Of a stretch of 64,000 bases of DNA, positions 10,664-12,617 are shown piece after piece. The translations under genes were made by a program, and so were the position numbers. The stretch covers positions 32,115-96,114 of the forward strand of contig JAPKZK010000111.1 in assembly GCA_026393835.1 (NCBI GenBank), given 5' to 3'. The stretch's first letter is position 1. Every line of letters begins with the position of its first letter. The notes beneath the pieces were generated by a model. The model ran no database searches. It had not been told where the DNA came from and saw only the letters and a program-made list of their open reading frames with translations. The stretch comes from Candidatus Aminicenantes bacterium. Its GTDB lineage: Bacteria > Acidobacteriota > Aminicenantia > UBA2199.

Positions 10664-10963
10664 TTAGCAGCAATCCTTAGGGCCGCATTCGCAGCCGCAA
10701 GACGGTTCGGAGCCCCGCATAGCCCCTTTAATAATAGCGTAGGCGCATCCCACGCCGGAGCGGACGGCGATGGCGCCGAAGGGGCAGTTTTGTGCGCAGG
10801 CGCCGCATTCCATACAGGCGTCCTTTTGGATAATCCCGGCTTTTTTTTCATTTATCTCAAACACGCCGTGGGGGCAAACTACGGCGCACATACCGCAGCC
10901 GGTGCATTTATCCCTGTCCAGCGTCAGCGTCGCAACGTCTTTTAAATATAGGTCATTTCTCAT
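10664..10963 (-). CDS. hgcB: HgcB, 2x[4Fe-4S] ferredoxin of the mercury methylation pair
   Basis: CTGCGMCAVVCP and CMECGACAQNCP motifs (C(M/I)ECGAC is the HgcB signature) plus a C-terminal CC pair. Start set to the ATG at 10963, 5 nt after AGGAGG; the longer ORF runs to 10987. Confidence 0.85.
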   Translation of the reverse strand: MRNDLYLKDVATLTLDRDKCTGCGMCAVVCPHGVFEINEKKAGIIQKDACMECGACAQNCPFGAIAVRSGVGCAYAIIKGAMRGSEPSCGCECGPKDCC

Positions 10964-10979
10964 TGTTCCTCCTGGTTTA

Positions 10980-12065
10980 CTAAACAAAACGTCCTGCCAG
11001 CCATAATAGTATCCCGACGGCGGCGGCGGTTATTTGCGCCGGCACCGCATAACGCATCTCTTTTTTCACGCCCGAGAGCGATGTGTAAGTGGAAGCGCCG
11101 GTAAAGTTCATGGTTAAAAATGATGCAATCGAAGAGATCAGCAGGAACCATGCCGTGGTTTCCAGCGGGGAAGCGCCCCGAAGCGCGGTGAAGAAAGCGA
11201 ATCCAAAGAAGAGAACCCCGATTACAAAGCCTTTGAAAGAGAAACTTCGCCCGGGCAGCCAGGGCAGCAGCAGCGGCGCGGCGGCGGCGCCGGCGAGATA
11301 AGCCAGCAGCAGCGCCCATACGGCGCGTAGACCGGCGGGGACCGCCGTATTTAGCGAATAACCGCTGCTATTGAAGCCTGAAAGCAGGAAAAAGGCCGCC
11401 ATGATAAGTAGGAATTTCGGGGCGCCCTGCACCAGTTCGATGGGCGCCACCCGCGCCCGGTCCTTAAATGAAAACCGCACCCGCCGCATCCCCGGCGTGG
11501 CCCTCATCCCGGCCCGGAGAAACGCGGGGATATCCGCGGCCCGGACCGGCCCGTAAATCACAGTGAAACCCGATTGCCCTTTCACCCGGTGGGCCGAGAC
11601 CCCCGGCGCGCCCAGTTGCGGTACGATTAATTTCCTGTGTTTGACGATTTCCTTTAGCCCGGTGATATCGATGCGGCGCACCAGTTCATCCGAGCCGAAG
11701 GTTCCTTTGCCGGCGGCGCACCAGACGTTAACGCCCCCGGTATCCAGGACCAGTATCCAGGCATCCAGCCCGGCGAGTTCCTTGCGCAGGGCGTCGAAAC
11801 TTAATTTGTAATTGGCGGAAACCAGGACAATGGCATTCTCATCCGGGTTCCCCACGGCATAAATCCCGGGTTCTACCTTGTAATTCATGCGGCCGATTCC
11901 CCAGCGGGCTTTTACAGCGCCCCATTTATCGGCCCCGGTTAATTGGGTGGATACCCTGGGAACAACCTGTATCTTTTTCTCCCGTGCCGTCGAGCCCGAT
12001 GGGCAGCATGGCGCGGCTTGTTCCGGTCGCCCCGGTTGTTCGGGGCAGCAGCAGTTCTTTTTCAT
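10980..12065 (-). CDS. hgcA: HgcA, corrinoid protein of the mercury methylation pair (corrinoid-binding domain + C-terminal multi-TM domain)
   Basis: Cap-helix signature NVWCAAGK at nt 11706-11729 (aa 113-120). C-terminal half has about 5 hydrophobic helices. It sits immediately upstream of hgcB. Confidence 0.88.
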   Translation of the reverse strand: MKKNCCCPEQPGRPEQAAPCCPSGSTAREKKIQVVPRVSTQLTGADKWGAVKARWGIGRMNYKVEPGIYAVGNPDENAIVLVSANYKLSFDALRKELAGLDAWILVLDTGGVNVWCAAGKGTFGSDELVRRIDITGLKEIVKHRKLIVPQLGAPGVSAHRVKGQSGFTVIYGPVRAADIPAFLRAGMRATPGMRRVRFSFKDRARVAPIELVQGAPKFLLIMAAFFLLSGFNSSGYSLNTAVPAGLRAVWALLLAYLAGAAAAPLLLPWLPGRSFSFKGFVIGVLFFGFAFFTALRGASPLETTAWFLLISSIASFLTMNFTGASTYTSLSGVKKEMRYAVPAQITAAAVGILLWLAGRFV

Positions 12066-12092
12066 TTCATTCCTCCTTTTTTCATTTTATAT

Positions 12093-12548
12093 TTAAGCGC
12101 AGCATTTTAAGCCGATGGATTCGACGGCATTATTAAGTAGTTCAAGGGCTTCGCATACTTTTTCACGTTCTTCTTCGGGTATGCGGTCGAAGATCGTCCG
12201 GGAATAGTCGAGGGAACATTTTTGCAGTTTTTTGGCCAGGGTTTGTCCGTTTTCCGTCAGATCGATGCATACTTTTCGTCTATCCCCGGGATTTTCCCGG
12301 CGGGTAACGATATTTTCGCGCACCAGGATATCGACGATGCGGGTCATGGTGCTGATGGCGACCCCCATCCGACGACTCAAATCGTTCATGGGAAGCATCC
12401 CTTTCCTGTGCAGGGTTTCGATGGCGCCGCACTGGGGCAGGGTAAGGCCATAACATACCTTTTGATCCCGGTTTAACAGGTTTAACTTACGGATTAACCG
12501 GGTCATCAACGAGCTGAATTTCGTATAATTATCTTTGTCTTCCTTCAT
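12093..12548 (-). CDS. MarR-family transcriptional regulator, first gene of the hgcAB operon
   Basis: 151 aa. Winged-helix pattern LTLPQCGAIETL ... MNDLSRRMGVAISTMTRIVDILVRENIVTRRENPGDRR. Its stop lies 27 nt upstream of the hgcA start. Confidence 0.85.
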   Translation of the reverse strand: MKEDKDNYTKFSSLMTRLIRKLNLLNRDQKVCYGLTLPQCGAIETLHRKGMLPMNDLSRRMGVAISTMTRIVDILVRENIVTRRENPGDRRKVCIDLTENGQTLAKKLQKCSLDYSRTIFDRIPEEEREKVCEALELLNNAVESIGLKCCA

Positions 12549-12577
12549 TTTACCGGCCTCTATGTTCTTTACTTTGC

Positions 12578-12598
12578 ATTACACAATTATTGTATAAT
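12578..12598. promoter_or_regulatory. 21-bp imperfect palindrome overlapping the -10 box (candidate MarR operator)
   Basis: ATTACACAAT-T-ATTGTATAAT; the half-sites differ at 1 of 10 positions. Confidence 0.45.
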
Positions 12599-12617
12599 AC
12601 AACTATATTTTTGTCAA
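12589..12617 (-). promoter_or_regulatory. Candidate sigma70-type promoter of the marR-hgcA-hgcB operon
   Basis: On the minus strand: TTGACA (12617-12612), 17-nt spacer, TACAAT (12594-12589); about 40 nt upstream of the marR ATG. Confidence 0.6.

Follow-up and report, generated by a model that had tools for sequence, protein, structure and literature searches.

The reference proteins of microbial mercury methylation, HgcA and HgcB of Pseudodesulfovibrio mercurii ND132 and Geobacter sulfurreducens PCA, are said to go back to Parks et al. in 2013. How hgcAB is controlled and what purpose it serves are open questions in mercury biogeochemistry. In ND132 the regulator ArsR2 (DND132_1054), a protein with four cysteines, is co-transcribed with hgcAB, regulates it, and responds to arsenic and to S-adenosylhomocysteine (SAH) (Gionfriddo et al., bioRxiv 10.1101/2022.10.17.512643); the only hgcAB regulator tested so far is ArsR-like and comes from one Desulfovibrionaceae lineage. 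Other regulators have been mentioned in passing: in 112 genomes McDaniel et al. 2020 (PMC7438021) note a “conserved putative regulator”, not named further, ahead of hgcAB, and one sentence in a second report (PMC10349881) places a MarR-family gene upstream of hgcA in two isolates. It has also been described that some HgcA proteins carry N-terminal extensions with CC motifs, and that the “short” references ND132 and GSU1440 extend upstream across a UGA codon to give a conserved PCUGP selenocysteine (Sec) motif with a “packing” of extra cysteines (Haft 2022, bioRxiv 10.1101/2022.07.06.499078). Here we analyze a marR-hgcA-hgcB locus in a 64,000-nucleotide window from an uncultured Candidatus Aminicenantes bacterium (contig JAPKZK010000111.1 of assembly GCA_026393835.1, positions 32,115 to 96,114), in which an initial annotation had recognized a MarR-headed hgcAB operon and a Cys-rich tail on HgcA.

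The hgcAB genes, the CC/CU tail of HgcA and ArsR-type control are established. What appears to be new at this locus are the details of the predicted regulation by MarR, which come from computation and can be tested directly. We found no description in the literature of the cysteine signature of this MarR, of its operator, or of its sister clades linked to arsM and ArsP, and only passing mentions of MarR together with hgcAB.

Linkage of marR with hgcAB and the predicted operators

The locus consists of three minus-strand genes: the marR-family regulator (12093-12548; 151 aa, ending in ...GLKCCA), hgcA for the corrinoid protein of mercury methylation (10980-12065; 361 aa), and hgcB for a 2x[4Fe-4S] ferredoxin (10664-10963; 99 aa counted from its ATG). 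The marR stop codon (12093-12095) is separated from the hgcA ATG by 27 nt, with AGGAGG at 12072-12077, 6 nt ahead of the ATG. A 16-nt gap with AGGAGG at 10968-10973 lies between the hgcA stop and the hgcB ATG. The mechanically called hgcB open reading frame (ORF) opens at TTG 10987, within the 3' end of hgcA; since a Shine-Dalgarno sequence precedes the ATG at 10963, this ATG is the likely start. The coordinates, both gaps, the AGGAGG between hgcA and hgcB and the shared orientation of marR given by the initial annotation were all confirmed in the sequence.

The order marR-hgcA-hgcB is kept amid unrelated flanks in relatives with 70-83% HgcA identity, among the related loci compared (numbered L007, L085 and so on). 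Three MarR homologues of ~50-58% identity are also found upstream of hgcAB, one of them with an unknown gene and a DsbD_TM gene in between. Sixteen metagenome loci had a MarR of ≥50% identity followed by ≥500 nt of sequence. The HgcA cap motif stood 310-470 nt downstream in 14 of them; in the remaining two it was found at 1.8 kb and not within 798 nt, respectively. MarR homologues down to ~44% identity appear to accompany hgcAB wherever enough flanking DNA is available, as would not be expected of a chance neighbour. We further examined the immediate upstream neighbour of hgcA at 76 GTDB loci, a sample biased towards HgcAs resembling that of the window, and found MarR to be the commonest (15 loci), followed by LMWPc/ArsC (9), DsbD_TM (6), Acr3 (SBF; 4), ArsR HTH_5 (4) and MazE (2). 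In this GTDB sample, an HgcA tail of the Cys type was present in 13 of the 15 MarR loci (Fisher P = 4e-5, a statistic that ignores phylogeny), and none of 13 loci with a Sec-form HgcA had a MarR gene upstream. Variant modules are also seen, as in L089:4001-7326 and L107:89-3453, where marR is followed by a gene for an unknown protein of 207-267 aa with no family match, a DsbD_TM protein gene, hgcA and hgcB; the HgcA of L089 has no Cys tail.

Upstream of marR, a sigma-70-type promoter on the minus strand (12589-12617) consists of TTGACA (12617-12612), a 17-nt spacer and TACAAT (12594-12589). With 11 of 12 consensus matches it is the best site in 10400-12950, and almost all related loci compared have a TTGACA in the corresponding position ahead of marR. 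No terminator-like sites were found in 10400-12950, and no minus-strand promoter-like sites inside marR or hgcA, in a scan with the E. coli-type sigma-70 consensus that could miss internal promoters. Two palindromes of 6-1-6 architecture, neither assigned to a strand, lie at this promoter. The predicted operator O1, TTGTATTATACAA (12590-12602), overlaps the -10 hexamer and is an exact match to the 13-bp consensus TTGTAT-N-ATACAA; the predicted operator O2, TTGTGTAATGCAA (12574-12586), lies 16 bp away start-to-start, directly downstream of the -10 box and over the expected transcription start. Both came from a custom script and pattern search; an inverted-repeat tool at default thresholds returned nothing in the promoter region. 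When the whole window was searched for TTGTRT-N-ATRCAA with at most one mismatch, O1 and O2 were the only matches.

The operator motif is conserved as well. Allowing up to 2 substitutions, TTGTAT-N-ATACAA occurs within -120 to +10 of marR in 35 of 36 hgcA-linked marR loci; the background rate in these loci is 0.006 per 130 nt. Every two-site locus listed keeps the 16-bp spacing (L007, L009, L046, L081, L084, L085, L089, L092, L094, L096, L098, L100, L101, L103, L104, L107 and L111, for example). Loci of the Syntrophales type have a single palindrome between TTGACA and the ATG that immediately follows. In ten such Syntrophales/Smithella-type loci (L018, L039, L045, L049-L052, L064, L072 and L076) the marR ATG stands 0-3 nt past the palindrome, and a TAT(T/C/A)AT -10 box lies inside it. 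This direct succession of palindrome and ATG suggests that the marR-hgcAB mRNA of these lineages is leaderless.

The joint conservation of regulator and cis-element across phyla argues strongly, at the level of sequence, for an autoregulated operon of marR and hgcAB, with repression by MarR expected at the -10 box. The earlier proposal of a MarR-headed operon is thereby strengthened, given the conserved gene order, the short gaps, the lack of a detected terminator or internal promoter, and the conserved operator.

The cysteine signature of MarR and its candidate ligands

The regulator matches the Pfam MarR family (PF01047, 54 bits against a cutoff of 24.6, E = 1.4e-14), with no match to HTH_5 (PF01022) at E ≤ 0.01. 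Its AlphaFold2 (AF2) model (predicted local distance difference test, pLDDT, 85.7) has the standard MarR fold, and the top Foldseek matches were MexR, HpaR, Rv0880 and MarR, all with probability 1.00. Sequence identity to the nearest solved structures (these four and AbfR) is at most 26%. In the model, where the cysteines were placed by secondary-structure element only, alpha2 contains C40 and is preceded by a short strand with C32; the wing holds C94 and alpha5 holds C111, and the pair C149-C150 belongs to a C-terminal tail whose residues 148-151 are disordered. Among 49 subfamily sequences, C32, C111 and C150 never vary and C40 and C149 are conserved in at least 90%; C94 is conserved at 89% in a 73-sequence alignment. 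After distant Syntrophales/Smithella-type members were added, C32, C111 and C150 were still invariant; C40 and C94 are not retained in the Syntrophales-type clade. In addition, a C-terminal CC or CxC is present in 93 of 93 further family members. At E ≤ 1e-8 the family profile recovers about 1,100 cluster representatives; the MarR proteins of G. daltonii and D. alkaliphilus, both confirmed methylators, are not among the named matches.

More distant relatives of this MarR adjoin arsM or the gene of an ArsP-family permease. A sister clade of ~41-44% identity keeps a motif of a vicinal CC plus a Cys (KCCHGxTLSQC) and has neither C111 nor the C-terminal CC. In one of its members (L117:345-1645) the gene directly downstream encodes the arsenite methyltransferase ArsM (NF008823, 300 bits; cutoff 263), and hgcA is absent from the vicinity; others are found at L115, L116, L119-L127, L132, L133 and L135. 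A CC-tailed relative of 35% identity that ends in ...NPRCC (L128:3471-4932; also L129 and L131) stands directly upstream of an ArsP_1-family permease (PF03773), which in L128 shows weaker similarity to SaoE and to Cu/Zn efflux transporters. Furthermore, hgcA itself is often flanked by arsC and acr3, both at the 76 GTDB loci and in published work (PMC7438021). Given the arsM- and ArsP-linked relatives, these arsC/acr3 flanks and the response of ArsR2 to arsenic, a thiophilic metal(loid) is favoured as the ligand that MarR would sense.

We propose the following model, to which as a whole we assign a probability of about 0.6: an autorepressed marR-hgcA-hgcB operon, a MarR released by thiols binding a metal(loid), and an HgcAB that methylates Hg(II) with the help of thiol arms. 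One sigma-70-type promoter (12617-12589, minus strand) would drive all three genes as a single operon. A MarR dimer would bind O1 and O2, covering the -10 box and the stretch just downstream, and since the two sites cover this region MarR would repress its own gene together with hgcAB. Repression would be lifted once the conserved cysteines are engaged (C32 and C111, with C40 and C94 in the clade of the window, and the flexible C149-C150). The most plausible trigger would be thiophilic, a metal(loid) species like As(III) or Hg(II) or an organoarsenical, in analogy to the control of hgcAB by the Cys-rich ArsR2 in ND132. A membrane-anchored HgcA, with its corrinoid and Cys116 cap helix, and the ferredoxin HgcB would then methylate Hg(II), and the N-terminal CCC...CC of HgcA and the C-terminal CxCxC...CC of HgcB could serve in the cytoplasm as thiol arms for the capture and transfer of Hg(II) or methylmercury (MeHg). 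The gene identities, the operon layout, the conservation of promoter, operators and cysteines, and the genomic linkage are supported directly. Repression itself, the identity of the ligand, what the tail does and the capacity to methylate are inferred.

Several points weigh against this model. The six conserved cysteines would fit a redox or disulfide switch, a structural Zn site or an Fe-S cluster equally well. As neither C111 nor the C-terminal CC is present in the arsM-linked sister clade, different clades may sense their signal at different sites. The association of HgcA tail and MarR could be due to horizontal transfer of the module as a whole, the sigma-70 consensus may not be that of the host, and published work notes that hgcA expression was originally considered constitutive.

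The first of these points leads to the alternative that survives best, namely that MarR is a redox sensor of the OhrR/MexR/AbfR type, in which oxidation of the cysteines, for instance when this anaerobe meets oxygen or peroxide, would alter DNA binding and metals would not be involved. Thiol-switch MarRs are indeed among its structural neighbours (MexR, SarZ and AbfR, the last both reduced and disulfide-bonded), several of the conserved cysteines could form disulfides, and as the cofactors of HgcA and HgcB are oxygen-sensitive, redox control would make sense. However, the relatives in the clade adjoin arsM and an ArsP-family permease rather than genes for peroxidases or thiol repair. A terminal vicinal CC on a disordered tail is, moreover, typical of soft-metal binding, as in MerA and HgcB and likewise in AfArsR, and not of one-Cys or two-Cys peroxide sensors. 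We consider a redox sensor unlikely.

A second alternative assigns the cysteines a structural or cofactor-binding role (Zn or Fe-S), with an organic effector in the usual MarR pocket, such as SAH or a metabolite of the corrinoid or methyl cycle. Most characterized MarRs bind organic ligands (HpaR, PcaV, BpsR and a MarR that binds IAA, indole-3-acetic acid), ArsR2 of ND132 responded to SAH too, and S-adenosylmethionine (SAM) is the methyl donor of HgcAB (PNAS 2024, PMC11588087), so that SAH would be a product of the reaction. Yet a C-terminal CC on a flexible tail of low model confidence would be an odd structural site, and the loss of C40 and C94 in the Syntrophales-type clade leaves no fixed four-Cys site across the family. 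An organic effector is thus quite improbable.

It is very improbable that marR is merely a conserved neighbour which autoregulates or acts elsewhere while hgcAB is expressed constitutively from an unrecognized internal promoter. The original view of hgcA expression and the limits of an E. coli-type promoter scan would allow for it. Against it, the 27-nt gap holds only a Shine-Dalgarno sequence and no terminator was found, order and strand are kept across phyla amid unrelated flanks, and the variant modules insert genes between marR and hgcA with orientation intact.

Returning to the metal(loid)-released repressor, a wider claim can be put forward tentatively: this MarR is possibly the founding example of a dedicated and widely transferred family of hgcAB regulators that sense Hg(II), MeHg, As(III) or methylarsenite via C32, C111 and the CC arm, and derepress through TTGTAT-N-ATACAA. 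The “conserved putative regulator” of McDaniel et al. is probably the same MarR subfamily. The name HgcR is already taken by an unrelated 2-hydroxyglutarate regulator. If the proposal is true, mercury methylation would be inducible rather than constitutive in Aminicenantes-like, Syntrophales, Smithella, Lentisphaerota, Spirochaetota and Clostridia lineages, and the inducer would hint at the native function of HgcAB. The locus would offer a second regulatory system for study: a small MarR with a characteristic set of cysteines, a pair of 13-bp operators, and hundreds of homologues that consistently adjoin hgcAB. The arsM and ArsP links of the sister clades would strengthen the connection already reported between arsenic and mercury methylation.

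HgcA, HgcB and their cysteine-rich arms

The assignment of the gene pair as hgcAB, made earlier from motifs, was supported by curated hidden Markov models (HMMs). HgcA scores 454 bits against the NCBIfam equivalog HgcA_corrinoid (NF040863, cutoff 275, E = 2e-136), with aa 35-360 covering profile positions 1-324 of 325. It falls below the cutoffs of the HgcAB-like fusion paralog model (199 bits against 285) and of the ACDS gamma/CFeSP model (78 against 306). HgcB scores 126 bits against HgcB_ferredoxin (NF040864, cutoff 99, E = 3e-37). The cap-helix motif NVWCAAGK (aa 113-120), placed at 11706-11729 by the initial annotation, was read there by hand on the minus strand; its Cys116 is the presumed lower axial Co ligand. 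N113, V114, W115 and C116 are invariant in an alignment of 34 homologues, and the motif aligns with the CFeSP cap helix (the SVLTAWAAGKF segment of 2h9a), so that the cap-helix cysteine sits in the homologous column. CFeSP (2h9a/2ycl) is the closest solved structure to HgcA in the copy of the PDB examined, which contains no solved structure of HgcA itself. The AF2 model of HgcA (pLDDT 83.9) has a Rossmann-type domain followed by five long helices within 200-360 (200-228, 238-269, 275-293, 300-322 and 330-360), in agreement with the multi-transmembrane (multi-TM) C-terminal half noted before. The nearest relatives of HgcA are metagenomic (at most 89% identity), and the closest named relatives of both HgcA and MarR are proteins of Aminicenantes metagenome-assembled genomes (~56-61% identity).

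HgcB likewise has the features defined for this protein by Cooper 2020 (PMC7305189): two CxxCxxCxxxCP motifs, Cys73 and C-terminal cysteines, of which the terminal CC has been put forward as a Hg shuttle. The motifs are CTGCGMCAVVCP (20-31) and CMECGACAQNCP (50-61), and the cysteines, numbered from the translation, are C20/23/26/30, C50/53/56/60 and C73, the same numbering, terminal CC included, as in ND132 HgcB (PMC7305189). The tail SEPSCGCECGPKDCC adds C89-x-C91-x-C93...C98-C99, five cysteines beyond C73. The CMECGAC motif and terminal CC pair noted earlier are thus in place, the protein ending in KDCC.

These scores and the cap-helix alignment place HgcA neither among the paralogs nor with a shifted cysteine, and the evidence supports a genuine hgcAB pair. 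That it is a non-methylating paralog, or inactive in vivo for mercury methylation, is scarcely credible: the organism is uncultured and the best GTDB species representative among the matches listed has only 62% HgcA identity, but both equivalog models pass where the fusion-paralog and CFeSP models fail, and the essential residues (cap-helix Cys116, HgcB C73 and the terminal CC) are all kept.

HgcA begins with MKKNCCCPEQPGRPEQAAPCCPSG, in which five cysteines form the clusters CCC and CC (APCCPSG) with a linker rich in Pro, Gln and Glu between them. This tail (aa 1-34; 11964-12065, minus strand) lies outside the HgcA HMM, and residues 1-30 have a pLDDT below 50 and are predicted to be disordered. 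All 29 HgcA homologues of at least 60% identity have three or more cysteines among their first 45 residues, and across ~25 diverse HgcA sequences the sole conserved columns of the tail are two CC pairs, 4-16 residues apart. Among the top 118 homologues, 65 carry a tail with at least two cysteines, and 64 carry one with CC. The tail with five extra cysteines in the initial annotation is therefore present, conserved and predicted to be disordered.

We also looked for the Sec form. The window gene is not of this form, as its frame contains no TGA from the ATG at 12065 up to the corrinoid domain. At 13 of 80 GTDB loci (L012, L013, L016, L017, L020, L027, L037, L042, L048, L053, L057, L059 and L079) an in-frame TGA gives (G/S/T)CU(P/D/A) at the equivalent place of the tail, ~45 residues ahead of the corrinoid domain and upstream of the called hgcA start. 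Cys-type tails were counted at ~34 of the 80 loci and no tail at ~32, by a crude script of which a few calls are doubtful. Since the CU form is reproduced at the equivalent place, the APCCPSG tail is the all-Cys form of the known and widespread CC/CU extension. Like the extension described by Haft, it precedes the start modelled earlier, combines a vicinal dithiol with neighbouring Pro/Gly residues (APCCPSG against PCUGP) and packs extra cysteines; it differs in being pure Cys, with two clusters (CCC and CC) and no in-frame UGA. A unique or novel tail is ruled out, both by its occurrence in 65 of the 118 top homologues and by prior publication. The earlier suggestion of a thiol-rich, metal-handling tail remains reasonable, whereas its description as less standard does not hold, because Haft had already described the CC/CU extension.

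We considered whether the tail on HgcA makes up for an HgcB tail poor in cysteine. In a comparison of the window HgcB with 78 others, HgcB tails are the same with and without an HgcA tail (median of 5 Cys in both; terminal CC in 83% and 84%), which rules out compensation and marks the HgcA arm as an addition rather than a replacement. Such arms can escape annotation. At L088:4444-4640, the called HgcA of 343 aa starts from LDRHYISG, and an in-frame, uncalled stretch upstream encodes IRKKTDSCCSQSSCCPTEEPE (including SCCSQSSCC) without an ATG; this uncalled tail points to an undercount in databases of Cys-tailed HgcAs that start at codons other than ATG. The Cys/Sec tail of HgcA is often lost in gene calling, which matters for HMM-based surveys of hgcA and for structural models.

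Neighbouring genes and comparison with known systems

Directly downstream of hgcB lies a CHASE4-HAMP-PAS histidine kinase gene (8313-10571, minus), and a homologous kinase follows hgcB in L085. No terminator was found between hgcB and this kinase gene, and weak promoter-like sites occur at 10590-10630. A PAS-HisKA-REC hybrid kinase gene (5539-7362, minus) is located further downstream. The window also encodes four small XRE-type (HTH_19/HTH_3) regulators (12854-13282, plus; 18059-18478, 18516-18953 and 20846-21289, all minus). One XRE-type gene is transcribed divergently from marR, and a separate near-consensus promoter (TTGACA-17-TAAGAT, preceded by TG; 12693-12721) serves as its predicted start; this divergent partner is not conserved in relatives, with the exception of a similar gene two positions upstream in L085. 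Other genes include an ADOP-family duplicated permease typical of Acidobacteriota (21962-23842, minus), a 1154-aa S8 subtilase with Ig-like repeats (14402-17866, minus) and an uncharacterized 2077-aa ORF (32734-38967, plus). These three genes give the sole hints in the window to the taxonomy or functions of the host: no tRNA genes were found in the 64 kb, and ten large ORFs that were scanned contained no universal marker.

Compared with HgcA of ND132 and PCA, HgcA of the window shares the corrinoid domain with the N(V/I)WCA(A/G)GK cap helix, the five TM helices and the adjacent dicluster ferredoxin. It differs in its arm, which is all-Cys (CCC-x14-CC), whereas the references have the Sec PCUGP form or are annotated without an arm. 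The window HgcB differs from the reference HgcB proteins in the five cysteines of its tail after C73, and the operon is headed by a MarR-family rather than an ArsR-family regulator.

Like the regulators already noted upstream of hgcA (PMC7438021, PMC10349881), the window MarR stands directly upstream of hgcAB and recurs across phyla; the passages in those reports that mention such regulators give no Cys signature, operator or subfamily definition. With the thiol-based MarRs OhrR, MexR, AbfR and SarZ and the metal-binding AdcR and ZitR it shares the MarR fold and the principle that Cys or metal sites modulate DNA binding. However, its identity to these proteins is at most 26%, none of them has the combination of C32, C111 and a terminal CC, and AdcR and ZitR use His/Glu Zn sites.

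The closest functional parallel is ArsR2. Both are small, Cys-rich winged-helix regulators encoded directly upstream of hgcA on the same strand, and both have relatives linked to arsenic genes. They belong to different protein families, the window protein matching Pfam MarR and not HTH_5, and their cysteines are differently placed (C47/C49/C86/C88 in ArsR2 against C32, C111 and the C-terminal CC in the window protein). In contrast to ArsR2, the MarR of the window comes with a defined pair of predicted 13-bp palindromic operators.

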